NCBI GenBank assembly: GCA_041645165.1
Contig: JBAZQN010000011.1
Location: 1,254-65,253, forward strand
DNA: 64,000 nt
Origin: Patescibacteria group bacterium
GTDB taxonomy: Bacteria; Patescibacteriota; Patescibacteriia; 2-02-FULL-49-11
Direction of reading: 5' to 3'
Each line of letters starts with the position of its first letter. Position 1 is the first letter of the stretch. The translations under genes were made by a program, and so were the position numbers. This document shows, in pieces, positions 10,517-61,350 of this stretch. The notes below the pieces were generated by a model, which was given only the letters and a program-made list of their open reading frames with translations, was not told where the DNA came from and ran no database searches.

Positions 10517-10551
10517 CTCACCCCAGCCCTCTCTTATCCTAAGAGAGGGAG
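10514..10551 (+). repeat. HP1 copy 2
   Basis: Same 38-nt element; its TAA is the stop codon of the 9635..10516 gene. Confidence 0.9.
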
Positions 10552-10664
10552 CCATTATTCCTCCTCGTGGTAAAGACCAATCTCTATGGAGTTCTGGAGA
10601 CAATTCTGCACATTCTTAAGGATTCGTAACTCACCCCAGCCCTCTCTTATCCTAAGAGAGGGAG
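10552..10664 (+). repeat. remnant of a tandem duplicate of the HP1-linker-DUF559 unit (linker stub, last 61 nt of the DUF559 ORF, HP1 copy 3)
   Basis: 10569-10629 is identical to the 3' end of the DUF559 gene (11019-11079). It is followed by a complete HP1, then the linker hairpin HP2 plus SD plus ATG of the intact gene. Confidence 0.8.
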
Positions 10665-10707
10665 CCATTATTCCTCCTCTTAAGGTAAGAGGAGGTAAGG
10701 AGGAGTT

Positions 10708-11079
10708 ATGAAGGCAACAAATCGGACATATAATGATCGAGAATTGAAATCGTTAAGAAGAACATTACGGAAGAATTTTACCGATCAAGAGAGATTATTG
10801 TGGAGTAAATTGCGCAATAGGCAATTAGACGGACATAAGTTTTATCGGCAATACGGTGTTGGTCGTTATGTGGTAGACTTTTATTGTCCTGAAAAACGAA
10901 TTGTAATTGAATTAGACGGAGGGCACCATACCGAGAAGACGAACCTTCAGCTTGATGCTGAAAGGGATAAGGCATTGAACACCCTCAACATTCGAGTATT
11001 AAGATTTTGGAACCATGAGGTAAAGACCAATCTCTATGGAGTTCTGGAGACAATTCTGCACATTCTTAAGGATTCGTAA
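10708..11079 (+). CDS. DUF559 / Vsr-like endonuclease-domain protein
   Basis: 123 aa with C-terminal motifs …VDFYCPEKRIVIELDGGHHTEK…DAERDKALNTLNIRVLRFWNHEV typical of the DUF559 restriction-endonuclease-like fold. Preceded by HP2 (cctcctcttaaggtaagaggagg) plus SD ggaggagtt plus ATG. Confidence 0.7.
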   Translation: MKATNRTYNDRELKSLRRTLRKNFTDQERLLWSKLRNRQLDGHKFYRQYGVGRYVVDFYCPEKRIVIELDGGHHTEKTNLQLDAERDKALNTLNIRVLRFWNHEVKTNLYGVLETILHILKDS

Positions 11080-11160
11080 CTCACCCCAGCCCTCTCTTAT
11101 CCTAAGAGAGGGAGCCATTATTTCTCCTCTTAAGGTAAGAGGAGGTAAGGAGGAGTTATG
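11077..11160 (+). repeat. HP1 copy 4 plus HP2-SD-ATG linker, exact duplicate of 10627-10710
   Basis: The 84-nt identity supplies an SD and ATG at 11158, opening a 10-codon mini-ORF that overlaps the large-subunit start at 11178. Confidence 0.9.
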
Positions 11161-11177
11161 ATTTATAACGTTACGTT

Positions 11178-12488: not shown

Positions 12489-12852
12489 CCGCAATTTCTT
12501 CAACGACGCGGCCATTGTCTTCGGGAGGCACACCAATAATCCGGACTTCAAGGTCCGGATTTATTTTTTTAAGCAGAAGCAGGTGGAGCCCAAGGTCGAA
12601 ATCGTGAAGGCTTACGTTGCTGCGTGTTTTTAGCGCGGCGGCAAAAGCATCAAGCGATTCGAAGCAGGACACGTCCTTGATCCCTTTCACCGTGTCAATG
12701 ATCCACCAGGGGTTTTCCGGCGGTATACATTCCTCGGTTGGGTCTTTTACTTCAAAGGTAATTTCTGGGAAACGTTTTTGAAGTTCTGGAAGAATTCTCA
12801 AGGGAAGCGAATCTTCTTCAAGAAGTGGATTGCCAAAAACAGTAATGGTCAT
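12469..12852 (-). CDS. hydrogenase maturation protease (HycI/HoxW-like)
   Basis: 127 aa. N-terminus ITVFGNPLLEEDSLPLRI matches the GNxLxxDDGxG signature. It is convergent with and overlaps the large-subunit gene by about 20 nt. Confidence 0.5.
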   Translation of the reverse strand: MTITVFGNPLLEEDSLPLRILPELQKRFPEITFEVKDPTEECIPPENPWWIIDTVKGIKDVSCFESLDAFAAALKTRSNVSLHDFDLGLHLLLLKKINPDLEVRIIGVPPEDNGRVVEEIAAMLHPT

Positions 12853-12964
12853 AGTCTTGACGGATAGCTATTTTTCTGTTAAATTTCTCTGTTTAAAAAG
12901 TCAGATGAGACTGAAAGGGCAAAAAAGTTTTCAGTCGCATCTTAAATGAAAGAGAGGAGAGGAG

Positions 12965-13162
12965 GTGAAGAAGATGAAGAAGAAAGTAAGCCTCTCATTT
13001 CAGTATAAGCATGAGCGTAAACCTTCATCAGTGAGGTTTATCGAGCTTATACCATATGGGTCGCCGGAGTTCGTTCTCTCGAAGATCGAAAGTGCATTAA
13101 GAATAATGCAAGAAACCGGTGATGAAATACTTACAATCTCCCAGGATGGGTGGTTGAGGTAG
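12965..13162 (+). CDS. small hypothetical protein (65 aa)
   Basis: SD ggaggtg 7 nt upstream of the ATG. Lys-rich N-terminus. No similarity recognised. Confidence 0.3.
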   Translation: MKKMKKKVSLSFQYKHERKPSSVRFIELIPYGSPEFVLSKIESALRIMQETGDEILTISQDGWLR

Positions 13163-13200
13163 TGTGGATGGGAGATTAGTCATAGCCCGGCTAATCTCTT

Positions 13201-14010
13201 TTATATTAATGAAAATTGTAACGAGAGTTTTGTATAATGTATCAAATTTTTAAGCTGCTGAGGATTTAATATTTCGCAGGGCATATCCCAGTGGATGGAA
13301 ATCGTGTCACCCTCCTTTACCTCTTCCATAAGCGAATCATCGTCCAGCCTGCGGGTGATGCGGTAGGGGTTGGGGGAGCCGAGGATTAAACGATTGGGAT
13401 TCCCTTTTAGTTTTTTTTGCCTGGATCCCGCATCAAGTGCGGGATGACAATGAGAAAGGATAAGCGGTTGCCGTGATACTGTGATAAATGGCCCGTCTAT
13501 GAGTATGACCTTCCCCCAGCTCACACGGCATTTGTCCATGCTTTCGAGTGTGTGTTCCGTTTCTGCGTGCCCCGTGCGCTGCCACACATTGAACACATGG
13601 AAATTATGATGAGGGAGCGGGTGATATTGTAGCGTCGCCGTGAGATGGTCGAAATTACGCGCGGTGAGGCGCTTTTTTAATTTCAGCGCGTCAGTGAAAT
13701 GGGTCAGGAGCATTTGTGGGGTGATGGGAGTGAGCAGTTCGTTGCCGAGCCAGTAGGATTCGACGATGCGTTCGTCAAAAGGATCCGCAATGCCGTTCGC
13801 ATGCGCAATCATCTCTAGGTAGGGATAGAGCGTTTTGAATTTATGGAGCAGGTTTTCAAGCCCTTGGCCGCTTTCTTTCGCGGTGAGGTAGGCGAGCACT
13901 TCGCGGTTCGCGTCAGGCCCGCACAGGTGCAGGCGATTGGGGCCGAAAGAATAACGCGCGCAGCGCGACACGCCGTCAACAGGCACAGAGGTGGATAAAG
14001 GCTGAACCAT
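13201..14010 (-). CDS. hypothetical protein (269 aa) carrying an in-frame copy of the ccgcatcaagtgcggg hairpin element
   Basis: Long ORF with no recognised motif. Nucleotides 13420-13453 (ctggatcccgcatcaagtgcgggatgacaatgag) match repeats at 25362 and 25941. Confidence 0.45.
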   Translation of the reverse strand: MVQPLSTSVPVDGVSRCARYSFGPNRLHLCGPDANREVLAYLTAKESGQGLENLLHKFKTLYPYLEMIAHANGIADPFDERIVESYWLGNELLTPITPQMLLTHFTDALKLKKRLTARNFDHLTATLQYHPLPHHNFHVFNVWQRTGHAETEHTLESMDKCRVSWGKVILIDGPFITVSRQPLILSHCHPALDAGSRQKKLKGNPNRLILGSPNPYRITRRLDDDSLMEEVKEGDTISIHWDMPCEILNPQQLKNLIHYTKLSLQFSLI

Positions 14011-14039
14011 ACGCGGAGAAATACGGTTCGTAACTCCTC

Positions 14040-14165
14040 CCCGCCTCCTCTTATCCTAAGAGGAGGAGTCGATTTTGGCCTTCCCTCTTATTTTAAGAGG
14101 GAAGATTTGATGCATCACCCTCTCTTAAAGTAAGAGAGGGATGGGGTGAGTTACGAGAAACGAGG
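14040..14165 (-). repeat. three HP1/HP2-type hairpins in reverse orientation (cctcctcttatcctaagaggagg, ccctcttattttaagaggg, ccctctcttaaagtaagagaggg) plus cgtaactcacccca
   Basis: This is the reverse complement of the ctcaccccag-hairpin unit. The DMT transporter ORF reads through it for about 23 codons. Confidence 0.8.
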
Positions 14166-15198: not shown

Positions 15199-17661
15199 TC
15201 ACTTTTTTAAATATACAAACACTTTTGTGGAACCAATCGTTGCCGTGTGGTCTGCGTCAAGAGAAGCGCGTGCGGATATCTTTTCTGCATCAAGCCAGTA
15301 AGAGTTAAGGACAAAATATGCGCGCGTGACACCCACAAGATCCATGGCGTTTTCCATTGTTACGCGAGATGCTTTTTGGTACACCATGTTGAGGTAGAAT
15401 TGATAGAGAGGTGAAGAGGTGGGAATGGGGTAATAGAATATAGTTTGACAGTCTGCAGTTTGGCAGTTTTTCAGTTTAAAGTATTTTTTAAAGCCGAATT
15501 CTTGCAGGGCGGCGGCGGCTATGGATTGGTTGGAAAGGACGATATGCGGCTCGTTCCCCGCGTTGGCTTCTATCCAATGCGCCGTGTCTATATCCGTTTG
15601 GGAGACAGAAAAGCCGCGGCTTTTGGAAAAGGCATCGACGCGGGGGTACGTGTAGTAGAAAGAAATGGTGATGAGGCAGGTGAATATTACGAGAGAAAGA
15701 ATTATCGATTTTGTTCCCGTTTGGGGATGGACAATTTTGTTCGGCGTCGCGATCAAGCGACCCTCGCGCCTTTCCGCCTCAAAAATTGCCATCCCCTCAC
15801 TGTCATTAATTATGACAGAATATAGTTCTCTACAGGAAAAGAGGGAGGAGATAGATCGATATAGTGTAATAATAAAGAGGGGAAGTATGGTGAGTCCTAT
15901 AAGGTCGAGGATACGTTCGGTAAACTCTGGGCGCTCATATGCGATCATCGCGGTGAGGGGAAGTGTGCGGATAAAAAGGTAATTGATGAAGAGGACCAGC
16001 GCAGTGAGCCATAAAGCGAGTGGGTATTTGTTTTCTTTGCGACGCAATAGCAGGTACGTCCCTGCCAAGGCGCCGATGAAGAAAAGGAGAGGGAGCGCTC
16101 GCATCCAGAGCTCGCTTGTGTGTGCGAGGGAGAGGAAAGGTAGGTAGTGGGGAATGAGATTGGGAAGTGGGAGCGCGTCAGCATATAAGGGTGCAATGCC
16201 CCCGTAGAGCTTGTTTGCCACCATAATCGCGGCAGGAAGCCCAAGCGAGCTCAATATGCTGATTATAATAGTTAAAACACGGGAGATACGTGGAGAAGTA
16301 TTATTCTGCACGGTTATATATGAAAGGAGCATGAGGGCAGGAATACCGGTGATGGGATGGATAAATATTATGCAAAACGCAATACCCCAGAGCAAGGATA
16401 GTGGTAAGTGGCGATGAAGGCATGATAAGGAAAGCAAAACGAGGATGAGATAAAAAAGGTTCGCAAGCGATTGCGGCACCGTGGCGATAAAAAGCGAGGG
16501 GGGGATGATGAGGAGCGAAAGAATTGTAATGAGTAAAAGATGTGTTTTTTGAAAATATTTTTTCAGTGTGAAAATTCCAATAATGGGAATGAGAATGCTT
16601 GCGAGGACAGGCAGAAGCCAGAGGTCAATGAGCGGAAGGGGAATCAGCATCACTTTTGAGAGAAAGACTACAAGGACATATTGCCCAAGATATGACAAAG
16701 GAGGCGGGGTGAGCAAGCCAGTTTCGAAGATAATTTTTTCAGTCGCACGGTGGATAAACGGATCAAAGCCATATCCGATGCGGTAGATGAGGAGCGCGAG
16801 AGAGAGGGTGAAGAAAAAATGAAATAATAGGAGTATTAGTTTGATCGAAGAAAAGGACGCGGGATCCGCTCGGGATGGTTCTCGGCGAACACGCGTCCCC
16901 GCCTCCTGCCCCGCCATGCGGGGCTCCGCCTCACCAGTCCCACTCCCGATAGTATCGGGAGACCATGCTGGGGCTGGCTCCGGAGGGTTCGCCAGAGAAC
17001 CAATCCCTCGCTGAGAGGTCAAGAACGGAAACTTCCTAGATGCTTTTATCCCCGACCAAGCCTCTTCTTTACGGGAGAAAAGAAATAAGAGAATAAAGGT
17101 AGCAAGTGCATAGAGATAAAGGAGCGAGTGGGGAAGGACTTCCCATGGTGTGCGTATTGAGGCGTCGGTGCGATGGTCGAGAATGAGGTTTATGGATATA
17201 GCGAAGAGGGTGAGATATGCAAAGGTAAGGAGTGTGGGGACAAGATATTTATTGAGCGGCAGTCGAGTATGTATTGGCTGTGATTCCGGTTTAGTATCAG
17301 CAGGGGGCTGGCGCTTGGTGCGAAGAAATAGGATTACATAACCGGCAAGAGGGATGAAGAACGTTATTGCGGTAATAGCGTACTCATTGAATGCCGCGAG
17401 GCGAAAATATGTGGATCCAGCGAGAATAACGAGCACAAGAACCGAGAGGAAGCCAAGAGTGTATTGTTCAATCCTTTCGCGGGAAGGCGCAAAAATGTTG
17501 CCCCAAAGCACGCACGAAACAACGAGCCAGAGGATGCTAAATGTAATCCCAATAATGAGAGAGTGGAAAAAGAAAAGGTTGAGCGCGAGTCCTGCAGGGA
17601 GCAGAAGCAAAATGGCGATTTTCGTAGCACGAGATTTTGTTAATATGTGGTAAGGGCGCAT
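15199..17661 (-). CDS. large polytopic membrane protein (possible GT-C-type glycosyltransferase) with two in-frame repeat insertions
   Basis: 820 aa, more than 12 predicted TM helices, soluble C-terminal domain. Repeat S copy 2 (15723-15804) encodes …INDSEGMAIFEAERREGRLIATPNKIVHPQTG…. A GC-rich composite palindrome (about 16878-17001) encodes a Pro/Gly-rich loop. Confidence 0.5.
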   Translation of the reverse strand: MRPYHILTKSRATKIAILLLLPAGLALNLFFFHSLIIGITFSILWLVVSCVLWGNIFAPSRERIEQYTLGFLSVLVLVILAGSTYFRLAAFNEYAITAITFFIPLAGYVILFLRTKRQPPADTKPESQPIHTRLPLNKYLVPTLLTFAYLTLFAISINLILDHRTDASIRTPWEVLPHSLLYLYALATFILLFLFSRKEEAWSGIKASRKFPFLTSQRGIGSLANPPEPAPAWSPDTIGSGTGEAEPRMAGQEAGTRVRREPSRADPASFSSIKLILLLFHFFFTLSLALLIYRIGYGFDPFIHRATEKIIFETGLLTPPPLSYLGQYVLVVFLSKVMLIPLPLIDLWLLPVLASILIPIIGIFTLKKYFQKTHLLLITILSLLIIPPSLFIATVPQSLANLFYLILVLLSLSCLHRHLPLSLLWGIAFCIIFIHPITGIPALMLLSYITVQNNTSPRISRVLTIIISILSSLGLPAAIMVANKLYGGIAPLYADALPLPNLIPHYLPFLSLAHTSELWMRALPLLFFIGALAGTYLLLRRKENKYPLALWLTALVLFINYLFIRTLPLTAMIAYERPEFTERILDLIGLTILPLFIITLYRSISSLFSCRELYSVIINDSEGMAIFEAERREGRLIATPNKIVHPQTGTKSIILSLVIFTCLITISFYYTYPRVDAFSKSRGFSVSQTDIDTAHWIEANAGNEPHIVLSNQSIAAAALQEFGFKKYFKLKNCQTADCQTIFYYPIPTSSPLYQFYLNMVYQKASRVTMENAMDLVGVTRAYFVLNSYWLDAEKISARASLDADHTATIGSTKVFVYLKK
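15723..15804 (+). repeat. repeat family S copy 2, in-frame inside the 15199..17661 gene
   Basis: The outer stem ggggatgg…ccatcccc covaries relative to the other copies. Confidence 0.8.
16878..17001. repeat. GC-rich composite palindrome (ggttctcggcgaac … ccccgccatgcgggg … ctcccgatagtatcgggag … gttcgccagagaacc) inside the coding sequence
   Basis: Nested perfect palindromes. GC far above the host gene. It encodes a low-complexity PPEPAPAWSPDTIGSGTGEAEP segment. Confidence 0.55.
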
Positions 17662-17867
17662 AAAAAATTACTATTTCAAGGTAATCATCATAGAATTGTC
17701 ACATTACGGTATTAATCTCATTATACATTAAAGTGGTGAATATGTTATTTTACAGCGCCTAAATGTAGCAGTACTGTGCATTCATGCAAATAGGTTTATT
17801 GATAATAAAATGAGCCCTCATAAAGGGCACATGGTGTTTAATTGTGAAATATACTAATTTGCCAACC

Positions 17868-25361: not shown

Positions 25362-25403
25362 GTTTGTTTCTGGATCCCGCATCACGTGCGGGATGACATG
25401 AAA
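25362..25403 (+). repeat. hairpin-element family H (ttgtttctggatcccgcatcacgtgcgggatgaca), copy at the recombinase 3' end
   Basis: Perfect palindrome atcccgcatca(a/c)gtgcgggat. Other copies lie at 13420 (in-frame), 25941 (in-frame) and a partial one at 19828. Confidence 0.85.
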
Positions 25404-36906: not shown

Positions 36907-37138
36907 TATGCCCCGCAATACAACATCCAAGAGGGAGGCAGAGACATTAGCGCAGAGAATGGATAATATAAGGGAATCTGCATGAGTGCGCTAATAGGTA
37001 TTTTTATGGCCTCCCTCACCGATCGCCAAACGTTTTCTCCCATCATAATTATGCATCACTACTCCAAGGTCGCATTCATTCTAGGTATTTATACCATGCC
37101 AGCCGCGTTTGGCGTTGGATGTTGATATACGGGGTATG
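36907..37138 (+). promoter_or_regulatory. conserved ~230-nt structured 5' leader L, copy 1 (upstream of the Wzy-like gene)
   Basis: Shares tatgccccgYaatacaacatccaagagggaggca … gcctccctcaYcgatcgcca … ggcgttggatgttgatatacggggt(ATG) with 50649-50876. The 5' end is complementary to the segment covering the start codon. Confidence 0.6.
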
Positions 37139-42734: not shown

Positions 42735-42875
42735 AAAATATAAATCGAAGTTCTAAATCCGAAACCCTAAACCCTAAACACCCCATCGACTCGGCTCAGG
42801 GTGACAAAGCGGTTGTCATGGTGAGCCGAGTCGAACCATGTTTAGAGTTTAGAGCTTAGAATTTAGAGTTTATTC
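42735..42875. repeat. heptamer-periodic quasi-palindrome (ctaaatc/cgaaacc/ctaaacc… mirrored by gtttaga repeats) with central hairpin cgactcggctca…tgagccgagtcg
   Basis: Arms homologous to 55305-55445. Sits upstream of metK. Confidence 0.8.
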
Positions 42876-44652: not shown

Positions 44653-45597
44653 ATGGAAATAATTGTCACCGGCGGAGCGGGGTTTATCGGATCGCATGTT
44701 GTGGATGCGCTGATTGGGCGTGGATTTCAGGTAACGGTGATTGATAATCTTATTACTGGCAAGCGGGCAAACGTGCACAAAATAGCTAAGCTGATTAGGT
44801 TGGATGTCAGAAACCCTAAACTTAATAATTTATTTAAAACAATAAAACCTGTATACGTTTTTCATCTTGCAGCGCAAATGGACGTGAAAAAATCATTGAG
44901 AGAGCCGCTTTTTGACGCGAGTGTGAACATATTAGGATCGCTCAACGTGATTAAATCAGCTGCTGATGTTGGGGTGAAAAAATTTATCTTTACCTCAACT
45001 GGCGGCGCAGTCTACGGCGACACATCAATTATTCCCACACCCGAAACAGTACCCGAGGCGCCCATTTCACCATATGGGGTGGCAAAGCTCGCGGTAGATA
45101 AATACCTCCATCAATTTTGGCACGTTGCAGGCATGCCCTATGTGAGCTTGAGATTTGGCAACGTGTATGGACCGCGCCAGCGTGCTGACGGCGAGGCGGG
45201 CGTGGTGGCAATCTTTGCAGGAAGGCTCGTACGCGGATTGCCCTGCGCGATAAATGGGAGCGGTAAACAAACGCGCGATTTCGTATATGTGGGCGATGTA
45301 GTAGATGCGGCTATGAAGGCAATGTATAAACCTTTTGTGGGCACGGTCAACATTGCAACAGGGAAGGAATCATCGGTAAATACGGTATATATGTTGTTGG
45401 CGAAAAACATACAGACGCGTTTGAAGGCCACACATAATCCTGCGATTCAGGGGGAGCAAATGCGCAGCGTGCTAGATTGGAAAAAAGCGAAAAAAGTGCT
45501 AGGATGGAAGCCGAAGGTGAATTTAGAGGAAGGATTGAGGAGAACTATTGCATGGCATTGTCATAATGCAAAAATCAAAAATCAAAAATCAAAATGA
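44653..45597 (+). CDS. NAD-dependent epimerase/dehydratase (GalE-like)
   Basis: VTGGAGFIGSHV, YGVAK (YxxxK). 314 aa. Confidence 0.8.
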   Translation: MEIIVTGGAGFIGSHVVDALIGRGFQVTVIDNLITGKRANVHKIAKLIRLDVRNPKLNNLFKTIKPVYVFHLAAQMDVKKSLREPLFDASVNILGSLNVIKSAADVGVKKFIFTSTGGAVYGDTSIIPTPETVPEAPISPYGVAKLAVDKYLHQFWHVAGMPYVSLRFGNVYGPRQRADGEAGVVAIFAGRLVRGLPCAINGSGKQTRDFVYVGDVVDAAMKAMYKPFVGTVNIATGKESSVNTVYMLLAKNIQTRLKATHNPAIQGEQMRSVLDWKKAKKVLGWKPKVNLEEGLRRTIAWHCHNAKIKNQKSK

Positions 45598-45660
45598 TAG
45601 ATCAAAATTTATAAATTTTGTATTCTCATTTTGCATTTTGAGATTTACATTTTGATTTAT
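45565..45660. repeat. heptamer-periodic quasi-palindrome ((aaaaatc)n … attttgatttt)
   Basis: Overlaps the epimerase C-terminus (…KIKNQKSK). Confidence 0.75.
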
Positions 45661-46336
45661 GACTGTGGTAGTTGTAATTCCCGCTTTTAACGAATCTCGG
45701 ACCATTGCCGAAGTTATCCATGGCTGTTTGCAGCACGCGAGTGAGGTCATGGTCATAAATGACGGTTCGTGCGATGATACTGCGCTGCGCGCGCGTCAGG
45801 CAGGCGCTGCTGTTTTTGAGCATATGGTGAACAGGGGATATGGCGCGGCATTGCAAACCGGCATACAGGCGGCGCTTATGCGCGGTGCGGACATCATCGT
45901 GACCATTGATGCGGACGGCCAGCATGAGCCGGAAGAGATCATAAAGGTTATTGAGCCGCTCCAAAAAGGCGAAGCTGATATCGTGATAGGCGACAGGTTC
46001 GGTACGCAGTCAAAGCGCGAAGGAATGAGTTTATTAAGAAAAGCCTACATTACCGCGGGGAACCTCCTCACATGGATCCTCTACGGCGTATGGCTCTCTG
46101 ATACCCAGTCGGGATTCCGCGCTTATACGCGCAATGCGTTAAGAAATTTGCAGACTCATGCACAGGGTATGGAATTTTCTTCTGAAATCATTGGAGAAGC
46201 GGCTAGACTGGGTTTGAGAATTGCGACTATCCCCATCACAGTGCGCTATACTGACTATTCGATAGGAAAGGGGCAGAATATATCTACAGGTATTGGGACT
46301 GCATTTCGGCTGTTCTTAAGAAGAATTTTGAGATAA
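45659..46336 (+). CDS. GT2 glycosyltransferase (polyprenol-phosphate sugar synthase/DPM1-like)
   Basis: VVIPAFNESRTI … VINDGSCDDT … DADGQH. Confidence 0.8.
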   Translation: MTVVVVIPAFNESRTIAEVIHGCLQHASEVMVINDGSCDDTALRARQAGAAVFEHMVNRGYGAALQTGIQAALMRGADIIVTIDADGQHEPEEIIKVIEPLQKGEADIVIGDRFGTQSKREGMSLLRKAYITAGNLLTWILYGVWLSDTQSGFRAYTRNALRNLQTHAQGMEFSSEIIGEAARLGLRIATIPITVRYTDYSIGKGQNISTGIGTAFRLFLRRILR

Positions 46337-46337: not shown

Positions 46338-46450
46338 ATAAAGCGTCGAGGTATAAGAAACAAGATACAAGAAACAAACATCAAGCTACAAGATACAATA
46401 ACCAATATTGGTGTTTGTGAGTTGGTTATTGGTGATTATTTGATGATTGT
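46338..46450. repeat. heptamer-periodic quasi-palindrome (aagaaac/aagatac … mirrored gtttcttgg)
   Basis: A related tract lies at 8985-9020. Confidence 0.7.
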
Positions 46451-46453: not shown

Positions 46454-46858
46454 TTGGTAATTGATTATTTACATATGGTTTTCCAGATCATCGCGTGCGC
46501 GTTAATCATATTGATTGTGGGGCGGATCGCATGGCAATTCCGCCGAGGCACGATCAGCGGGAAAGAATTTTTCTTTTGGTCGTTTTTTTGGGTGCTTGCC
46601 GCGGCGGCCATACTCGTGCCCAACGCCTTAACCATGATCGCGAATATATTAGGCATCGGGCGGGGGACTGACCTCGCATTTTACGGCTCATTCGTCATCG
46701 TCGCCTATGTGCTCTTCAGAATTGTGGTACGGATGGATAAGATGGAAAGGGATATCACAAAAGTAGTGAGACATTTGGCGCTTGATGATACGCATCAGGT
46801 ATCACGTATTAAGTATCAGGGGACTGACCGCGATACGCTTGAGAATCGTGATACGTAA
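46454..46858 (+). CDS. small 4-TM membrane protein (DUF2304-like, GT2-associated); the C-terminal ~25 aa are encoded by a taatac heptamer repeat
   Basis: Hydrophobic profile. Nucleotides 46775-46875 are the cgtgatacgtaatacctaatacc repeat. Confidence 0.4.
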   Translation: MVIDYLHMVFQIIACALIILIVGRIAWQFRRGTISGKEFFFWSFFWVLAAAAILVPNALTMIANILGIGRGTDLAFYGSFVIVAYVLFRIVVRMDKMERDITKVVRHLALDDTHQVSRIKYQGTDRDTLENRDT

Positions 46859-46889
46859 TACCTAATACCTAATACTTACTATTATCACC

Positions 46890-48044
46890 ATGCCCCGCGT
46901 CGCCGTGATCATAGTCACCTATAATAGCGCCCGGTTCCTCCCGGAACTTTTCGTAAGCCTTAAGGCCATGCAGCATCCCGCCGGCGGGGTGCAGTTTATT
47001 TTTGTGGACAATGCTTCTGCCGATCACAGTCCAGAATTGGTACGCGAGGCAATGCCGGATGCGGCATTGGTTCGTGAAAAAGAAAATAGAGGATTTTCTG
47101 CAGGTGTGAATGCAGGCTTGAGGCACCCGTTGGCGCAAGGCGTGGAATTTATCGCGCTTCTCAATCCTGACACGGTGGTGCATCCGGATTGGCTCACGGC
47201 CCTCGTGAACGCGTTGGAAGGACAGCGTAAGGCTGTCTCTGCTCAATCTCTTATTCTTTACGCGCAGGATCGCGAGAAGGTAAATTCAGCGGGAAATAGT
47301 ATCCACTTTTTAGGGTTTGGTTTTAGTCAAGCTAACGGGCAGTCCCGATCTGTCATTCTGAACGAAGTCCCGATACCATCGGGACGGAATGAGGAATCGC
47401 CCACGAATGTGGGCTCGCATACGCGAGAGATCCTTCGTCCCGATGCGCTTGGGACTCAGGATGACGTTAAACTCAGCACACATTTCATCACCTACGCGAG
47501 CGGGGCTGCAGTGCTGTACCGACACAATGCGTTGAAGGAAATTGGTTTATTCGACGAAAACCTTTTTATGTACCATGATGATCTTGACGTGGGGTGGAAA
47601 TTTTTGTTACGCGGATACCAGAATATTTTAGTACCCTCCTCGATAGTTTATCATCATTACGAATTTTCACGCAGCATCCGGAAATATTACTGGATAGAGC
47701 GCAATAGGCTCTTGCTCCTGCTTACGCATTATAAATTCAGCACCCTGTTATTAATTTTACCCGCATTAATTATTCTTGAATTCGGGTTGATGTTTTTCGC
47801 GCTCTACCGCGGTTTTTTTGGCGCGCGACTGCGTGCGTACGTATGGATATTTGTTCATGTGCCTTTAATTATGAAAAAACATAAATACGTGCAGAATATA
47901 AGAACACAGCCTGATAAGGCCGTACTTGGATCATTTACCGGTGTCATTACTGACCAAGAGATAAGCAATCCTCTTGTGGAATATGTTATGAATCCGGTGT
48001 TTGCATTATATCTTGCCTTTCTCCGTTATGTTATACGATGGTAG
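46890..48044 (+). CDS. GT2 glycosyltransferase carrying an in-frame RPE-like palindromic insertion
   Basis: VAVIIVTYNSARFL … FVDNASAD … DxD region. Nucleotides 47345-47465 (gtcattctgaacgaagtcc…gggactcaggatgac) encode …SRSVILNEVPIPSGRNEESPTNVGSHTREILRPDALGTQDD…. Confidence 0.8.
   Translation: MPRVAVIIVTYNSARFLPELFVSLKAMQHPAGGVQFIFVDNASADHSPELVREAMPDAALVREKENRGFSAGVNAGLRHPLAQGVEFIALLNPDTVVHPDWLTALVNALEGQRKAVSAQSLILYAQDREKVNSAGNSIHFLGFGFSQANGQSRSVILNEVPIPSGRNEESPTNVGSHTREILRPDALGTQDDVKLSTHFITYASGAAVLYRHNALKEIGLFDENLFMYHDDLDVGWKFLLRGYQNILVPSSIVYHHYEFSRSIRKYYWIERNRLLLLLTHYKFSTLLLILPALIILEFGLMFFALYRGFFGARLRAYVWIFVHVPLIMKKHKYVQNIRTQPDKAVLGSFTGVITDQEISNPLVEYVMNPVFALYLAFLRYVIRW
47345..47465 (+). repeat. 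RPE-like palindromic element, copy 1 (gtcattctgaacg…cccacgaatgtgggctcgcatacgcgagagatccttc…ggtcaggatgac)
   Basis: Terminal arms are inverted-complementary. Copies lie at 48701-48794 and, reversed, at 50514-50573. Confidence 0.85.
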
Positions 48045-48078
48045 GGGCAGAAAATTTTCTGCCCCTACAAGTGAATTT

Positions 48079-49494
48079 ATGCCATACCGAATCGCGCATA
48101 TCACCCCCGTGTACCCGCCTTATGCAGGCGGTATTGGGGTTGTGGCGAAAAATATGGCGGGAGGGTTGGCAGGAAGAAGATGGCAAGTGGAAACGTTTAC
48201 GCCCACGTTGGATAACTCCACCCAACCTCCTCTTAAGTTAAGAGGAGGGGAAGGAGGAGTTATGGATAATAAAATAACGTATCTCAAACCATGGTTGCAT
48301 GTGGGCAATGCGGCGCTCGTGCCGCAATTAAGGAAATTAGAAGGATACGATATCATTCATCTGCATTATCCTTTTTTCGGCGGGGCTGAATTTGTTCTTC
48401 TGGGTATAATTTTTCAACGATTTAATTCCGCGTTTTTCAGCGATAAGGCCACGCGTGACGTTCCGCGTAAGTCAGCGTTCATTTTACAATACCATCATGA
48501 CGCAGACGCTAAAGGTTTGAAGGGGATGATGTTTAAACTTTATGACAGGATTGTGCTCCCGCGTTTGATCACGCGCGCCGACAGGGTGATCGTATCAGCG
48601 ATGGATTATGCGCAACATTCACGCATTGCGAAATACATAAGCGATAAGTTTGTCGAAATACCGTTTGGGGTTGATGCGAAACGATTTGAACCGTTAGGTA
48701 GTCATTCTGAACGTAGTGAAGAATCTCCCGTGCATACGGGCACACCGCTGGCATTCGCCAGAGATCCTTCCCCCGACTCGCGGGGTCAGGATGACAAATC
48801 CGTTATTGTTCTCTTCGTCGGTTCCCTCGACCGCGCGCATTGGTTTAAAGGGTTAGAGGTATTACTTCACGCGTTCGCCATACTGAAACAAGAAAATGAA
48901 CAAAATCGTTTAAAATCTACTCATTTAAACCCTACCCTAAATACCACGAGCCAACTTCGCCATAGTAGCCAAAGGCTACGTCGGCTGAATCGTGGTAATC
49001 CTGCCTGCGCAGGCAGGAGGGAGGGATTGAATTTGAAATGTTTGGTTATAGGCGAAGGTAATCTTAAAGAGAAATATAAAAAAATGGCACAAGATTTAGG
49101 GATTCAAGACCAAGTGCAGTTTTTTGGCAACGTGTCTCAAACGCAATTGCCTGATTATTACCGCAACGCGGACCTTTTTGTGTTTCCTTCGGTATCGCGC
49201 GCGGAAGCATTCGGATTGGTGGCGCTTGAAGCAATGGCGTCAGGTTTGCCCGTCATCGTAAGCGATCTGCCGGGAGTGCGGACGCTGGTGGAAGAGGGGA
49301 TAAACGGATTTAAGGTGCCTGTGAATGATCCACGTGCGTTGGCGCGACGCATTCAGGATCTGATTGAAGATAAGTCACTACGCGGCAGTATGGGACAAAA
49401 AAGCAGAGAAAAGGTTTTAGAGGGTTATACATGGGATAAGGCTATTGACAAGATAGAGAGAGTGTACTTAGATATGTTGGTAAATAAACCATGA
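48079..49494 (+). CDS. GT4 glycosyltransferase with three in-frame repeat-derived insertions
   Basis: N-terminus MPYRIAHITPVYPPYAGGIG. C-terminus EAFGLVALEAMASGLPVIVSD (Glycos_transf_1). Insertions: 48216-48273 (HP2 hairpin plus ggaggagttATG), 48701-48794 (RPE-like), about 48900-49030 (palindromes gccatagtagcc…ggctacg and cctgcctgcgcaggcagg). Confidence 0.75.
   Translation: MPYRIAHITPVYPPYAGGIGVVAKNMAGGLAGRRWQVETFTPTLDNSTQPPLKLRGGEGGVMDNKITYLKPWLHVGNAALVPQLRKLEGYDIIHLHYPFFGGAEFVLLGIIFQRFNSAFFSDKATRDVPRKSAFILQYHHDADAKGLKGMMFKLYDRIVLPRLITRADRVIVSAMDYAQHSRIAKYISDKFVEIPFGVDAKRFEPLGSHSERSEESPVHTGTPLAFARDPSPDSRGQDDKSVIVLFVGSLDRAHWFKGLEVLLHAFAILKQENEQNRLKSTHLNPTLNTTSQLRHSSQRLRRLNRGNPACAGRREGLNLKCLVIGEGNLKEKYKKMAQDLGIQDQVQFFGNVSQTQLPDYYRNADLFVFPSVSRAEAFGLVALEAMASGLPVIVSDLPGVRTLVEEGINGFKVPVNDPRALARRIQDLIEDKSLRGSMGQKSREKVLEGYTWDKAIDKIERVYLDMLVNKP
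48216..48273 (+). repeat. HP2-SD-ATG element (cctcctcttaagttaagaggagg ggaaggaggagttATG) inserted in-frame inside the GT4 gene
   Basis: Same module that precedes the DUF559 and hydrogenase-large-subunit starts. It creates an internal SD plus ATG at 48271. Confidence 0.8.
48701..48794 (+). repeat. RPE-like palindromic element, copy 2 (in-frame in GT4)
   Basis: gtcattctgaacgtagtgaagaatctccc…agatccttcccccgactcgcggggtcaggatgac encodes HSERSEESPVHTGTPLAFARDPSPDSRGQDD. Confidence 0.85.
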
Positions 49495-49532
49495 AATAGC
49501 ATTTTCACAAAATTTGAGAGGAGGTGAGGAAG

Positions 49533-49673
49533 TTGAAAAAGTTCCCACTTTTTCTAATATTTCTGTTGTTGCTAGGTGGTTGCAAGGAGGAGGAGAAGAA
49601 AGAAAAGCAGCAAGATCAGCAACAACAGCAAGAGAAGGAGCAGGAATATACGGGGAAAGAATTAGATGTGTAG
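49533..49673 (+). CDS. small lipoprotein (46 aa, TTG start)
   Basis: SD gaggaggtgagg 7 nt upstream. Signal peptide LKKFPLFLIFLLLLGGC (lipobox) followed by a Glu/Lys/Gln tail. Confidence 0.3.
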   Translation: MKKFPLFLIFLLLLGGCKEEEKKEKQQDQQQQQEKEQEYTGKELDV

Positions 49674-49886
49674 CTCCTTCTTTTAAAAATGCGGCAGGGG
49701 TAATTGACTTGCCGCGGCTTTCTTAGATGAGAATGCATTTATCCTTTAAGAAAGCTTAGGAACTTTGAAGTAGTGAGAGCTTCATGATGCAATTCAGGGG
49801 CTCTTTTATTTATGCACATTGTTGGATTATGAAGAGTGTTATAAGGTGAAGTAATAAACCAATGTAGTTGATATCGAACCTTTACA

Positions 49887-50402
49887 ATGGAGGTCATTAT
49901 GTCCCCGAGAGAGAAGATTGTTGTGAGGGGGATCGTAACATTAGTTTTATTAGTTGGGGGTGGTTGGTGTTTGGTATGTGATTACCTCATGCATAAGTAT
50001 GAGGAGTCACAAATTGGTACAACGTCGACATGGGTGGGGTCGACTGGTACCGTTAATTCACTAGATCTTCCTGAATTAGATAATTTCCAAGCACAGGAGG
50101 ATCTCGAGATGTTCATCCAGCGTCATGAGCTGGCGGACATCCTCCACCGACGGGAATGCTACAGGGTGGCGTTCCCTCATGGAGAGCGACCGGATAGTAC
50201 AGTCGAGTGGCGTGGGCACAGGTCCGATCGTGGCCTTTTCCTTCTTGGGCCACCAACGGGGAGGACCGAACTCTATGAGGAGGGCGGTGAGTGTTATTAT
50301 ATTTTCACCGTTACCTCATTTGCTTCACAACGTTACTTCCTCCCGGGAATAACGATATTCAACGGGTCGCTCTGGCCCGGAGATTACCTTTTCGTTTTTT
50401 AA
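49887..50402 (+). CDS. hypothetical protein with an N-terminal TM helix
   Basis: 171-aa ORF with no motifs. Confidence 0.4.
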   Translation: MEVIMSPREKIVVRGIVTLVLLVGGGWCLVCDYLMHKYEESQIGTTSTWVGSTGTVNSLDLPELDNFQAQEDLEMFIQRHELADILHRRECYRVAFPHGERPDSTVEWRGHRSDRGLFLLGPPTGRTELYEEGGECYYIFTVTSFASQRYFLPGITIFNGSLWPGDYLFVF

Positions 50403-50513
50403 ATCCCGCCGATTTTTTAAAGGAGGAAAACCATTTTCCTCCTTCTGCCCTAGGAGATAAGTTAATTTGTCTTTTAAGGCGGGATTTAGAGAGATGGAGA
50501 AGGTTATGGTATA

Positions 50514-50573
50514 CCGTCCTCGCGCATACGAGCCCACATTCGTGGGAGATTCTTCACTACGTTCAGAATGACG
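50514..50573 (-). repeat. RPE-like element, copy 3 (partial, intergenic)
   Basis: Reverse complement atcgtcattctgaacgtagtgaagaatctcccacgaatgtgggctcgtatgcgcgag. Confidence 0.8.
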
Positions 50574-50605
50574 ATAGGAAGGGTATAAGGGTGTTTTTAT
50601 AGAAG

Positions 50606-50632
50606 AGAGTGTAGTAAGACACTCTTTTTTGA
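50606..50632 (+). terminator. rho-independent terminator (agagtgtagtaagacactct tttttt)
   Basis: 7-bp perfect stem followed by a T6 run, downstream of the 49887..50402 ORF. Confidence 0.6.
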
Positions 50633-50648
50633 TATACAATGATAATGT

Positions 50649-50876
50649 TATGCCCCGTAATACAACATCCAAGAGGGAGGCATAAATTTGAAAAATAGAG
50701 AATGGATTTACTAGGGGAGTCTCGGCGAGTGCATTAAGTGGTTCTTTCCTCGCCTCCCTCATCGATCGCCATACTAATGCCAAGTTTTTTGCGTAACATT
50801 TCATCTTAATCTCATTTATCCATCATAATCATTTTACGCCGTTTGTGTGGCGTTGGATGTTGATATACGGGGTATG
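50649..50876 (+). promoter_or_regulatory. conserved structured 5' leader L, copy 2 (upstream of the GT4 gene)
   Basis: See copy 1 at 36907-37138. It ends …ggcgttggatgttgatatacggggtATG. Confidence 0.6.
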
Positions 50877-53323: not shown

Positions 53324-53497
53324 AGATTCCGATTTTCAACGTCATTCCCGCCCCGTATCGCGGTACGGGGCAAGCTCCGGCGGGAATCCAGACGCCGTCC
53401 TCGACCGAGATCGGGGAAAATCAAAAGAAAACACCGATTTTTTGTTTGTTTTTTGTCTGGATTCCAGATCAGGTCTGGAATGACATTATCGGAATTA
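53324..53497 (-). repeat. MITE-B copy 2, between hrcA and grpE
   Basis: Reverse complement of 17868-18038 at about 90% identity. Confidence 0.85.
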
Positions 53498-54997: not shown

Positions 54998-55324
54998 GTG
55001 ATCAGGCGTATGACACCAAAAGAAAACAATAAAAATGAAGCATTGATGCTTTTACGGGAATGCCCTTCATGCCGTTCGCGGTATACCCACACATCGGTAC
55101 AGGTGCTTTCTGCCAATGAGAAAGGGTCGCTGGTATCGTTTACCTGCGGTGAGTGCCGACTTGATGTCTTGGTAGCGGTATCGCCGATGCCTTTCGGGCT
55201 GGTGGGCACTGGGATGCCGACTGACTGCGCGACCGACGAAGTGATGAGATTTATGGATTCAAACGAAATTACCGAAGATGATGTGATAGAGGCGCATACG
55301 TTGCTTGAAAATCCGAAATCCTAA
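54998..55324 (+). CDS. hypothetical zinc-ribbon protein
   Basis: CPSCRS…CGECRL double CxxC. 108 aa. Confidence 0.4.
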   Translation: MIRRMTPKENNKNEALMLLRECPSCRSRYTHTSVQVLSANEKGSLVSFTCGECRLDVLVAVSPMPFGLVGTGMPTDCATDEVMRFMDSNEITEDDVIEAHTLLENPKS

Positions 55325-55445
55325 ATCCGAAATCCTAAACAAGCTCAAAACACAAAATTCGAAATATTCCTATCCCTTAATATTTCGATGATTTGAATCT
55401 CGAATTTTGGATTTGTTTAGGGTTTAGAGTTTAGAATTTAGTATT
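55305..55445. repeat. heptamer-periodic quasi-palindrome upstream of dnaK (ctaaatc/cgaaatc/ctaaaca … gtttagg/gtttaga/gtttaga)
   Basis: Homologous to 42735-42875. Confidence 0.8.
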
Positions 55446-55452
55446 TATATAT

Positions 55453-57363
55453 TTGAGTATGTCAAAAATTATAGGCATAGACCTCGGTACTACCAATTCA
55501 GCGGTTGCCGTCATTGAAGGCGGCAGCCCAAAAATATTAGAAAACAGCGAAGGCGCGCGCACCACGCCCTCCGTTGTGGCCGTCAATAAGAACGGCGAGC
55601 GGTTCGTGGGGATGACGGCGAAACGCCAGGCAGTCACCAATCCCCAAAATACCATTTACTCGGTAAAGCGCCTTATCGGGCGCAGATACGATGACCCCGA
55701 AGTGCAGCGTTCGCAAAAAACCCTGCCTTACAGAATCGTGAAGTCGGGTGAAGGCGTGAAAGTGGCCATGGCAGAGAAGGAATATTCCCCACAGGAGATT
55801 TCCGCAATGATTTTGCAGAAGATCAAGGCGGACGTGGAGGCAAGACTGGGCGAAAAGGTGACGGAGGCGGTGATCACCTGCCCGGCGTATTTTGACGATT
55901 CGCAGCGTAAAGCAACGAAAGAAGCAGGCGAGATCGCGGGATTTACCGTGAAAAGGGTGCTCAATGAACCTACGGCTGCGGCGCTGGCGTATGGATTCCA
56001 GAAGAAGAAGGATGAAAAGATCGCCGTGTATGATTTGGGCGGCGGCACCTATGACATTTCCATTCTAGAAGTATCCAGCGATACCGTGGAGGTAAAGGCC
56101 ACCAACGGGGACACGCACCTTGGAGGGGATGATTTTGACCAAAGGGTCATTGATTGGATTATTGCAGAATTCAAGAAGGATCAAGGCATCGACCTTTCGA
56201 AAGACACGCTCTCGCTCCAGCGCATCAAAGAGGCCGCGGAAAAGGCGAAGATCGAGCTGTCCACGGCCATGGAAACGGAAATTAACCAGCCGTTTATCAC
56301 CTCTGGCGCTGACGGCCCAAAGCATCTGCTCTTGAAGCTGACCCGGGCGAAATATGAGGATCTGGTGGGCGATCTGATTGAAAAAACCAAAGAGCCGATG
56401 AAGAAAGCATTGAGCGACGCAAAGCTCACCGTGAAGGACATTGATGAAATTGTCATGGTGGGAGGAATGACGAGAATGCCCAAAGTATTAGCGATGGTGG
56501 AAGAGTTTTTCGGGAAGAAGCCGCATATTGGCGTAAACCCCGATGAGGTCGTGGCGGCAGGCGCGGCGGTTCAAGCAGGCATCATGCAGGGTGAGGTGAA
56601 AGACGTATTACTGCTTGATGTGACTCCTCTTACGCTCGGCATTGAAACGCTGGGCAGCGTGGCCACGCCTATCATTCAGAGGAATACCACCGTCCCGACG
56701 AAAAAATCACAGGTCTTTTCGACCGCCGCTGACGGGCAAACCTCCGTGGAGGTGCACGTGGTGCAGGGAGAGCGCCCCTTAGCGCACGATAATAAGAGTT
56801 TGGGGAAATTCATTCTTGACGGCATTCCTCCCTCGCCGCGCGGGATCCCGCAGGTTGAGGTTACCTTTGACATTGACGCGAACGGCATACTCCATGTCAC
56901 CGCAAAAGATCGCGCCACGGGCAAAGAGCAGAAAATCACCATCACCGCGTCCACCGGCCTTTCCAAAGATGAGATTGAGCGGATGAAAAAAGAAGCGGAA
57001 GCGCATGCCGTTGACGACGCGAAAAAGAAAGAGCAGATCGAATTAAAGAATACTGCCGACAGCATGGTCTATACCACCGAAAAGACCTTGCGCGATGCGG
57101 GCGACAAGGTATCGGCAGAGGTGAAGAAGGGGATCGAGGAGAAGGTGGAGGCGCTCAAAAAGGTGAAAGACGGCGACGACACCGATGCGATAAAGAAGGC
57201 AACCGATGCTCTCTCTCAGGAAATCCAAAAGGTAGGCGAACAGCTTTATAAAGCCGCCGCGGAAGCGAAAGGAAATACGGAGGGAGAGGTGAAGGCAGAA
57301 GATAAACAGGAGGATAAAAAAACTGTAGATGCGGAGTACAAGGATGTGAAGGATGATAAATAA
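55453..57363 (+). CDS. dnaK: molecular chaperone DnaK (Hsp70)
   Basis: [18 protein letters not shown], and full-length Hsp70 domain structure. Confidence 0.95.
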
Positions 57364-59919: not shown

Positions 59920-61350
59920 TTACTTTCTTTTTATAACTTGTCCTTCAGGAGTATCCTCGATGATATAGCCTTTTGCAGTAAGAGTCTTCCTTAAAACGTC
60001 GGCATCGGCGAATTTTTTTTGTTGCCTTAAAAGTTCGCGTTGTGCCACCAGCTCTCTTATATCCTCTGGCAAATCCTTAAGGTCTATTCTCGCGCTTACT
60101 GCGTGTGCCAAGTCTAGTCCGAGTATAGCATCAAATTTAAGCAGGCTCGCTTTTTTCGCGGCAGCTGGATAGTCAGATTTTATAAGATCCCATACTACCG
60201 AAAGCGCTTGAGGGAGGTTCAAATCGTCATTTATCGCGTCCATAAAACGCTGCTCATATTCTGCACATCCGATTTTAGGCTCATCCAGTAGTGCTGTTGT
60301 TTCTTTTAGATTTTTAAGCGCGGTTGCAGCGGCATCGAGCGCTTCCCATGAAAAATTTAATTTCTGCCGGTAATGGGCTGTAAAGGTAAAGTAGCGGTAT
60401 ATGAGCGGATCGTAACCCTTATCTATGAGAGTCTGTAGCCGGAGGAGATTGCCTTCTGATTTTCCCATTCTCCCCTCGTTAATTTGCAAAAATTCTCCGT
60501 GCACCCACCAGCGCGCGAGGGGCTTTCCTGTAGCCGCTTCTGCTTGCGCGATTTCATTGGTGTGATGGACGGGAATATGGTCAATGCCGCCCGCATGGAT
60601 GTCAAACGTTTCCCCCAGGTATTTCATGCTCATGGCAGAGCACTCGATGTGCCAGCCGGGGAACCCTATGCCCCAGGGAGAGGGCCATTCCATTAACCTT
60701 TTGTGATGTTTTTCATTATCTGCGTTGATCTGCGTTTTCGATCTGCGTTGATCTGCGTCGTGTGAAAATTTCCACAATGCAAAATCGGTCGGATTTCTTT
60801 TGCCCTTTACCATCTCAATTCTTGCGCCCGCCCTAAGGCCTTCGATATCAAGCCGTGCCAGCGCGCCATAGTGGGGGAATTTTGAAGTGTCAAAATAGAC
60901 ACCATCGCCAGCCACATAGGTAAAACCTTTCTGCTCCAATTTTTGGATGAGCTCGATTTGTTCTTTAATATGGTCAGTCGCCTTGCACCAGATATTGGGC
61001 TCAATAATATTGAGGCTCTTCAGGTCTTCCTTGAACGCGTCCGTATAGTACGCGGCAATTTCCCAGACTGTCTTGCCTTCGCGTCGCGCCCCTTTCATCA
61101 TCTTATCTTCACCCTCATCTGCGTCTGACGTGAGGTGTCCCACATCAGTAATATTCATGACGTGGTTCATTTGGTAGCCATTTGCCGTTATGACCCTTTT
61201 AAGAATATCTTCAGTGATGTAGGTCCTCAAATTGCCGATATGCGCATAGTCATAGACCGTGGGGCCACAAGTATAAAGACCCACGTGAGGGGGATTAATG
61301 GGTTTGAATTCTTCTTTTTTACGCGTAAGGGTGTTGTAGAGCTTGAGCAT
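59920..61350 (-). CDS. cysS: cysteine--tRNA ligase with an in-frame tandem-palindrome insertion
   Basis: HIGN ([19 protein letters not shown]), KMGKSEGN (KMSKS), and [17 protein letters not shown] zinc site. Nucleotides 60718-60760 (atctgcgttgatctgcg twice) encode an extra [20 protein letters not shown] segment. Confidence 0.9.
60718..60760. repeat. tandem atctgcgttgatctgcg palindrome units inside cysS
   Basis: The same 17-mer family occurs at 818-834 and 906-922 in the rsmH-ftsL spacer. Confidence 0.75.

Follow-up and report, generated by a model that had tools for sequence, protein, structure and literature searches.

Two adjacent glycosyltransferase genes of an uncultured, ultra-small Patescibacteria group bacterium (candidate phyla radiation), one of family GT2 and one of family GT4, each carry a composite palindromic DNA element inserted in-frame. 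The genes are located in a stretch of 64,000 nucleotides of contig JBAZQN010000011.1 (assembly GCA_041645165.1, positions 1,254 to 65,253), which is referred to here as the window. With a probability of roughly 0.7, the inserts are non-autonomous composites, REPIN-like or similar to MITEs (miniature transposable elements with inverted repeats), of hairpins of the NTS/SRM class that are tied to a GIY-YIG nuclease of the SsnA type and that the enzymes carry as tolerated loops. The reading draws on direct observation of the anatomy of the elements, the distribution of their copies, the linkage to GIY-YIG genes, the intact and constrained state of the host genes, and the location of the inserts in loops. 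The autonomous form would be a gene for a GIY-YIG protein of 93–96 amino acids between two arms, and this arm–GIY-YIG–arm unit would give rise to doublets devoid of an open reading frame (ORF), which would multiply in these genomes. Copies presumably arise by nuclease cuts where hairpins are extruded in single-stranded DNA, with copying or repair thereafter, and those in coding DNA would persist only if an open frame remains and the protein can accommodate a disordered loop at its surface.

The 13-mer GTCATTCTGAACG has exactly three exact occurrences in the window, at 47352 (+), 48701 (+) and 50572 (−). Element bounds were set by the complementary ends GTCATTCTGA.../...TCAGGATGAC. A preliminary description of this DNA had placed elements inside the GT2 and GT4 genes and a reversed, partial copy between genes, all of which were recovered with coordinates shifted by a few bases (Table 1). 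The GT4 and intergenic copies have an exact stretch of 29 nucleotides in common, and the GT2 copy matches the intergenic copy at 91% over 34 nucleotides. The three copies comprise five arms of one layout, GTC-ATYCT-GA-(inner hairpin)-GA-AGRAT-C, at 47352+, 47465−, 48701+, 48795− and 50572−, and a full element consists of two inverted arms around one to three small hairpins, with CCCACGAATGTGGG and CTCGCATNCGCGAG between the arms. Across the sequences compared, 389 arm matches contained 150 distinct inner segments, the commonest of which were GCGCAGC, GCGAAGC, GCGTAGC and ACGAAGT. The terminal stem of these segments averaged 2.67 bp versus 0.61 bp in shuffles, and G-C to A-T switches were evident, e.g., GCGNAGC and ACGNAGT. 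The oligonucleotide d(GCGAAGC) and GNA-loop relatives are unusually stable DNA mini-hairpins, and GCGNAGC, the commonest inner unit here, presumably forms a DNA mini-hairpin likewise. Both coding copies fold far more stably than shuffled sequences, none of 200 shuffles being as good, and the arms with longer inner stems, three of the five in the window, fold as DNA in the NTS register.

The NTS of Neisseria, CGTCATTCCCGCGMAVGCGGGAATCYRG, has been generalised as the SRM, which flanks ssnA (Chenal et al., Nat Commun 2025, PMC11893778). SsnA is a single-domain GIY-YIG nuclease of 94 amino acids. It binds the hairpin in single-stranded DNA exclusively, its cut falls a few bases upstream, and RNA is not a substrate; with Nm SsnA, cleavage depends most on the three bases preceding the palindrome and binding on the C that follows it (PMC11893778). 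All five arms in the window keep GTC directly 5′ of the palindrome and C directly 3′, which are the critical positions for Nm SsnA. The published SRM pattern, HGTCWYN(0-2)YYVSBRHN(0-5)WNVSBRGN(0-2)RNCYNB, was worked out manually from 29 genomes in four phyla (PMC11893778) and has two matches in the window (Table 1), versus 0.17 expected.

The arms are associated spatially with a gene for a single-domain GIY-YIG protein of ~94 amino acids in relatives of the window, including in the spacer between the GT2 and GT4 genes, though not inside the window. L-numbers denote the related genomic and metagenomic stretches with which the window was compared. In several of these, a GIY-YIG ORF of 93–96 amino acids (PF01541, E about 5e-17) begins ~5–20 nucleotides after an arm. 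In L008 (Saccharibacteria) and L153, a 5′ arm and a 3′ arm bracket the ORF exactly; in L137, L143, L135 and L147, it has an arm on one side and a full element on the other; and it adjoins arms or full elements also in L102, L033 and L018. Two GIY-YIG genes are present in L153, with a separate arm subtype next to each. In L137 and L143, the gene terminates at the TGA inside the arm (..CTG TCA TTC TGA), so that the last part of the nuclease gene is arm sequence. A GIY-YIG gene and an arm were separated by 150 nucleotides or less in four of four instances in the genome set and in 12 of 14 in the metagenome set, whereas random placement in the same loci gave 15–27%. The L008 protein, of 93 amino acids, has Tyr7, Tyr17 and Glu64 at the positions that were mutated in Nm SsnA (Y6, Y17, E64). 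The GIY-YIG proteins match PF01541 only, and their nearest solved structures are UPF0213 proteins (E = 1e-5). Judged from their sequences, the proteins are candidate Ssn-family enzymes (cd10448) and, by analogy with SsnA, would cut these arms.

The spacer between the GT2 and GT4 genes is filled by a GIY-YIG gene and then an element of the same subfamily in L003 (5128–5560) and in L132/L002 (L132, reverse, about 1600–1974; L002, 1490–1673). L132 and L004 are 98.6% identical over 1.6 kb of GT2, yet L004 has no cassette and, like the window, has GT2 abutting GT4. The sequences fit a history of the spacer in which invasion would have been followed by decay and loss of the cassette.

The degenerate arm 25-mer was detected in at least 120 stretches of bacterial contigs from one genome per species. 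Hosts among the matches listed include Nitrospirota, Chloroflexota, Acidobacteriota, Bacteroidota, Clostridia, Planctomycetota, Verrucomicrobiota, Omnitrophota, Gemmatimonadota, Saccharibacteria and Gracilibacteria, and many of these listed matches are plus/minus pairs 40–250 nucleotides apart. The 25-mer also is present in at least 120 IMG/VR contigs classed as viral (L182–L301), which may be true phages or host fragments; no GIY-YIG gene similar to three queries at E < 1e-5 was found in these contigs. The core 20-mer of the subfamily, GAATCNCCCACGAATGTGGG, is identical in 55 metagenome stretches and recurs in at least nine unrelated host gene families. Ten of 32 unique full subfamily elements from metagenomes (83–124 nucleotides) are inside long ORFs, in both orientations, and 14 distinct ORFs carry an element when partial and duplicate copies are counted. 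The hosts according to NCBIfam are PcrA/UvrD (two copies), Mfd, a FemX-like transferase (two copies), RsmA/KsgA (two copies), the CCA-adding enzyme, GT4 enzymes, UvrB (990 bits; cut-off 743) and UvrA (1433 bits; cut-off 1147), and the profile matches of the host proteins are split around the insert. A blastn search with the consensus element produced no match among PLSDB plasmids. Full-text literature searches with arm DNA strings and typical translated peptides returned nothing relevant, as did a search for literature on in-frame palindromic repeats in the candidate phyla radiation.

The doublet architecture is the same as that of REPINs, and the Ssn authors liken NTS-ssnA-NTS both to an insertion sequence and to REPINs, with mobility as a hypothesis only (PMC11893778). 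The elements could be REP/REPIN or IS200/IS605 palindromes that depend on a Y1 (HUH) transposase for movement, or else MITEs derived from a classical DDE insertion sequence; inverted ends are present. However, transposase genes were absent between widely spaced arm pairs; the arms in L081 flank groES-groEL, and the ORFs that were found between arms are GIY-YIG genes. Moreover, the ends do not bear the GTAG or CGTC tags of the REP super-families and no target duplication was seen, the orthologues offering no clean empty site. Mobilisation by a transposase therefore is very unlikely.

Codon alignments with syntenic loci revealed that the GT2 element is common to the window, L004, L002 and L132 (81% protein identity) and is absent from L005 (72%) and L001 (66%); the GT2 loop of L005 has a short TTGCAGA tandem repeat in its place. 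In L006 (58%) and L003 (56%), another arm subtype, GTCATTTCGAGCG...GGCTCGGGATGAC, which has ATTTC/GAAAT instead of ATTCT/AGAAT, occupies exactly the same GT2 codon. The GT4 element is common to the window and L004 (a 66–73% orthologue), persists as a remnant in L005, and is absent from orthologues with 54–59% identity. The GT4 gene has four insertion zones in total whose presence among orthologues is patchy. The preliminary description had proposed an alignment of orthologues as a means of telling insertions from ancestral loops, and the segments with the two elements proved to be inserted, repeated DNA. The contrary view, in which the segments are ancestral, fast-evolving low-complexity loops of both enzymes, gains from the fact that the loops at the two host sites vary in every orthologue, that an element stands at the identical codon in the distant GT2 orthologues L006 and L003, and that GT4 zone 4 occurs only at the orthologous site. 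Nevertheless, a core of 20–40 nucleotides recurs in unrelated genes and in intergenic DNA, both in the window and in the 55 metagenome stretches; the segments are strongly palindromic and absent from orthologues with 72–66% identity; and L006/L003 have an arm subtype other than that of the window, for which replacement is a better fit than descent. Ancestral loops accordingly are highly improbable overall: for the two SRM-type elements this explanation is largely refuted, whereas for GT4 zones 2 and 4 it remains open.

Comparison of the window with L004 disclosed paired changes in the inner hairpins of the GT4 element, with CCCGTGCATACGGG versus CCCACGAATGTGGG and CTGGCATTCGCCAG versus TCGCATCCGCGA. 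The insert peptides of the two GT4 elements are unrelated because the internal frame also shifts. Divergence of the GT2 element between the window and L004 was p = 0.153 compared to 0.27 at four-fold degenerate sites of the host. It thus is the nucleic acid palindrome and not the peptide that is conserved in these sequences, with the encoded peptide apparently a passenger. Palindromes might instead be retained as structures in mRNA that influence stability, pausing or local translation, with the link to a DNA nuclease incidental. The folding far above that of shuffles, the compensatory changes at paired positions between orthologues, the slower divergence of element DNA than of four-fold sites, and the position of many intergenic copies just after genes, as in L081, all are in keeping with an RNA function. 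However, Rfam searches of the whole window at gathering thresholds and of 47300–49100 at E ≤ 10 retrieved only tRNA and chance hits, and thus no match for the elements even at the permissive threshold. Coding copies also are found in both orientations relative to the ORF, and the linkage with GIY-YIG genes is tight, and SsnA has no action on RNA. The inner unit GCGNAGC, which is taken here to be a DNA mini-hairpin, also counts against a role in RNA. Furthermore, intra-strand templated repair at palindromes can yield compensatory changes without selection. Maintenance as RNA structure is judged unlikely on balance, and the nuclease-linked DNA element is preferred.

Both host ORFs are open, with the expected Pfam domains on either side of the inserts and all conserved glycosyltransferase motifs in frame. 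The claim that both coding copies keep the reading frame therefore holds, with the proviso that the GT4 copy, at 95 nucleotides, is not a multiple of three, so that what preserves the frame there is the insertion zone as a whole rather than the element by itself. When dN/dS (omega) was calculated over the columns present in all sequences, the comparison of the window with L004, both of which carry inserts, gave core values of 0.185 for GT2 and 0.221 for GT4 at dS of 0.55–0.77; core omega was 0.11–0.22 across all pairs with estimable dS, and omega for the inserts was 0.4–0.6. AlphaFold2 models had a mean pLDDT of 91.1 for GT2, in which the sole stretch <50 is residues 165–193, inside the insert at 155–192, and of 86.2 for GT4, in which the low zones at residues about 43–62, 120–130, 205–240 and 281–318 correspond to the four insertion zones. 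Low pLDDT is confined to the inserts, which therefore are tolerated loops on intact folds. Structure prediction had been recommended to establish whether the inserts map to surface loops, and they fall in low-confidence loops between confident fold elements.

Overall, codon comparison and structural models support the view, advanced in the preliminary description as probable, that the host genes are intact, subject to purifying selection, and look functional. The opposite possibility is that the glycosyltransferase genes are decaying pseudogenes or that the inserts are assembly chimeras, as the four separate inserts in GT4, one with an internal Shine-Dalgarno–ATG module, might imply. Intact ORFs, conserved motifs in frame and confidently predicted folds oppose this, as does core omega of 0.1–0.2 over dS of 0.55–0.77 since acquisition of the inserts. 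In addition, the same inserts are present in independent assemblies from ENA, JGI and NCBI, which excludes an assembly artefact, a source of error that had been flagged for checking. Decay or chimerism thus is extremely unlikely.

The suggestion that this genome tolerates or selects for peptide-encoding palindromes stood in its first part only. Tolerance is borne out by the frequency of full copies inside long ORFs. Selection for the peptides is not, in that peptide and frame change while the hairpins are kept, insert omega is 0.4–0.6, and seven of the ten coding copies have a length that three does not divide. The TGA within GTCATTCTGA closes one of the frames on each strand, and the remaining frames are open in 38–62% of copies versus 25–29% in shuffles. 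These lengths and open-frame rates together make frame preservation look like survivorship combined with mild intrinsic openness, not design.

Several observations weigh against the inserts being mobile hairpins linked with a nuclease. First, the arms at the same codon in distant GT2 orthologues, while closer ones are free of the element, are not predicted by simple random insertion; a hot spot, a sole permissive site, or conversion between elements are possible reasons for two arm subtypes at one codon. Second, neither a clean empty site nor a target duplication is definable in the orthologues, because those that are free of the element carry unrelated, variable loops. Third, the GIY-YIG copies next to these glycosyltransferase genes are broken, by a nonsense mutation in L132 and by frameshifts in L002 and L003, and the 64-kb window contains no GIY-YIG gene. 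Fourth, the published SRM pattern fails to match any of the five arms in the window, because the tandem GA interrupts the stem, and the shortest arm, with an ACGTAGT core, folds no better than shuffles with standard parameters (−0.8 kcal/mol, z = +0.33). Finally, transposition by Ssn proteins has been shown by nobody so far (PMC11893778).

The elements resemble the NTS/SRM–SsnA system (PMC11893778) in the hairpin with GTC before and C after, in the hundreds of dispersed copies, in the gene for a GIY-YIG protein of ~94 amino acids that the motif borders on one side or both, in subtypes that co-vary with the nuclease gene, and in the wide spread across phyla; the two window sites noted above match the published pattern exactly. 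In contrast, the arms here have the tandem GA in the stem and an inner mini-hairpin and so escape that pattern, and they form inverted doublets with extra inner hairpins. Moreover, copies are in-frame in conserved genes here, whereas a keyword search of the text of PMC11893778 disclosed no report of such copies, and the host is of a Patescibacteria lineage that is not named in that article. As in REPIN/BIME systems with RAYT and in dRS3/NIME of Neisseria, short hairpins are arranged as inverted doublets, ORF-less units are dispersed, and the repeat also flanks an enzyme gene present in one copy; unlike REPINs, the partner is a GIY-YIG nuclease instead of a Y1 transposase, and the elements are found within genes as well, whereas REPINs are extragenic. 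The statement in the preliminary description that in-frame palindromes are rare outside Rickettsia was overstated, as in-frame copies of ERIC, BOX, QMITE1 of Coxiella and MITEs of Anabaena have been reviewed (PMC10969869). These intragenic MITEs likewise are small, non-autonomous repeats with in-frame fusions to host ORFs; they stem from DDE insertion sequences or unknown partners and each has a narrow taxonomic range, whereas the arm described here occurs in many phyla. The inserts show that essential, constrained genes can carry hairpin repeats of this class in-frame, which annotation and protein-family alignments of candidate phyla should expect.

The Rickettsia palindromic elements (RPEs), said to have been described by Ogata and colleagues in 2000 and 2002, are reportedly palindromic repeats of ~100–150 bp located in-frame in unrelated housekeeping genes. 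The comparison with RPEs made in the preliminary description is apt for behaviour: the elements here are in-frame in unrelated, functional housekeeping genes, at surface positions compatible with the fold, in a small-genome bacterium dependent on other cells. This is shared behaviour and by itself no proof of membership. The arms belong to the NTS/SRM class, apparently a different sequence family with a candidate partner enzyme, and no NCBIfam family matched the inserts of the two glycosyltransferases and eight other insert-bearing proteins at E ≤ 1e-5, the presence of RPE models in that release being unchecked. TIGR01045, presumably one of the NCBIfam models of the RPE domain, is subject to the same caveat.

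Rickettsia is listed among the genomes with >300 SRMs (PMC11893778), and a deeper link between RPEs and SRMs is possible. A broader scheme can be entertained tentatively, and is more doubtful than the interpretation of the inserts themselves: SsnA-type nucleases and their hairpins would constitute a selfish, REPIN-like mobile system with a GA-bulged arm across most phyla, which in ultra-small Patescibacteria would colonise essential genes, UvrA, UvrB, PcrA, Mfd and RsmA among them, and add surface loops to their products, and RPEs may belong to the same system. If so, RPEs would gain a candidate enzyme 25 years after their discovery, and in any event the long-unexplained RPEs acquire a candidate link that is testable. 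The locus provides natural evidence both on the role of Ssn nucleases outside Neisseria and on mobility of the unit: of strains with 98.6% identity in the neighbouring gene, one has the unit and another has none, nuclease genes are decaying, and ORF-less doublets reside in genes. It also emerges that a very widespread variant of the arm goes undetected by the published pattern.

The locus is a cell-envelope sugar region with the gene order epimerase, GT2, DUF2304, GT2, GT4, GT4, which is maintained in the related contigs L001, L003, L004 and L005, and the nearest named relatives of both glycosyltransferases are from Uhrbacteria. The features are compiled in Table 1.

Table 1. Positions in the window of the host genes, the elements, and other inserts and hairpins.
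Feature	Position	Strand	Remarks
GT2-family glycosyltransferase gene, host of first element	46890..48044	+	ORF 384 aa; Pfam PF00535/PF13641
GT2 composite near-palindromic element, 114 nt = 38 codons, in-frame in residues 155-192	47352..47465	+	fold z = -7.1
GT2 element, 5′ arm with enlarged inner hairpin GTCCCGAT..ATCGGGAC	47352-47398	+	arm pattern match at 47352+
GT2 element, inner hairpins CCCACGAATGTGGG and CTCGCATACGCGAG			
GT2 element, 3′ arm	47429-47465	read on minus strand	arm pattern match at 47465-
GT4-family glycosyltransferase gene, four insertion zones	48079..49494	+	ORF 471 aa; Pfam PF00534/PF13439
GT4 zone 1, HP2 hairpin + Shine-Dalgarno-like + ATG module, in-frame	48212..48273	+	families D2/D8/I15/I16; fold z = -4.95
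GT4 zone 2 (..NSAFFSDKATRDVPRKSA..)	48420..48480 (approximate bounds)	+	in window and L001; absent in L004, L005
GT4 zone 3, composite palindromic element, 95 nt, in-frame in residues about 208-239	48701..48795	+	fold z = -3.75
GT4 element, 5′ arm	48701-48725	+	
GT4 element, 3′ arm	48763-48795	read on minus strand	
GT4 zone 4, nested palindromes	48900..49030	+	fold z = -6.6; shared with L004, L005, modules gained/lost
Intergenic half element: 5′ arm (50548-50572) + two inner hairpins, without 3′ arm	50519..50572	-	repeat families I7, I8
Canonical SRM hairpin (TGTCATCCCGCACTTGATGCGGGATCCAG), in-frame in DUF6390 gene (13201-14010, -)	13421..13449	-	matches published SRM pattern
Second canonical SRM hairpin, intergenic, adjoins integrase-like gene	25370..25398	-	matches published SRM pattern
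SRM-like hairpin (TGTCATTCCAGACCTGATCTGGAATCCAG)	53457..53485	-	narrowly misses published SRM pattern; family D5; direct sequence reading

Two further GT4 inserts had been proposed, an HP2 module and a palindromic segment at about 48900–49030. The HP2 module, which at this GT4 site is confined to the window and adds 10 codons compared to L004, L005 and L001, was verified as a member of a dispersed family, TAACTC..CCCTCTCTTA..TAAGAGAGGG, often followed by GGAGG and ATG. This family is distinct from that of the arm elements and has about six copies in the window, one in-frame in GT4 and five intergenic copies clustered at 9.5–14.2 kb (9557–14156, including 10673, 11124 and 14044). The second segment, zone 4, is palindromic as proposed. 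Zones 2 and 4 have no dispersed copy in the window, and zone 4 has none in any DNA compared other than at the orthologous locus; neither zone therefore is called a mobile element. Zone 4 (48841–49008) is 94–98% identical to L005, the highest value of the locus, compared to 72–92% in the surrounding gene, in which four-fold sites differ by 39%. Recent exchange or recombination, or strong nucleotide constraint, are possible causes.

The DUF6390 gene (PF19927, E = 1.3e-56) specifies a protein whose span exceeds that of the profile by about 22 residues, and its in-frame hairpin reads ..SHCHPALDAGSRQ... With it, the genes of the window that have a hairpin repeat within their coding sequence would number three. 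A segment of ~1.35 kb (49495–50846) separates two GT4 genes that abut in L004 and L001. Besides the half element, it comprises small ORFs that match no family and a stretch (50649–50774) repeated at 36907–37031, and from the sequence looks like an insertion relative to the relatives.

Another palindrome of 54 nucleotides, GTCATTCGAC...GTCGGATGAC, is present at 839–892 between copies of a ATCTGCGTTGATCT repeat (810–922; also 60715–60759). Further dispersed repeat families of 74–108 nucleotides, some 94–98% identical, have nearly all of their copies in intergenic regions. These include D1 (3348, 15721, 34152 and 57760), of which the copy at 15721 is inside a long stop-to-stop ORF (15199–17667, −), as well as D4 (7182/52321), I1 (17932/53334), I2 (28410/54241) and I3 (30286/59183). 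Tandem repeats of 7 nucleotides, e.g., AATACCT, AAGATAC, AAATCAA and TTTAGAG, fill many intergenic spacers, with sites at 46851–46890, 46341–46399, 45560–45663, 42746–42873 and 55314–55462.

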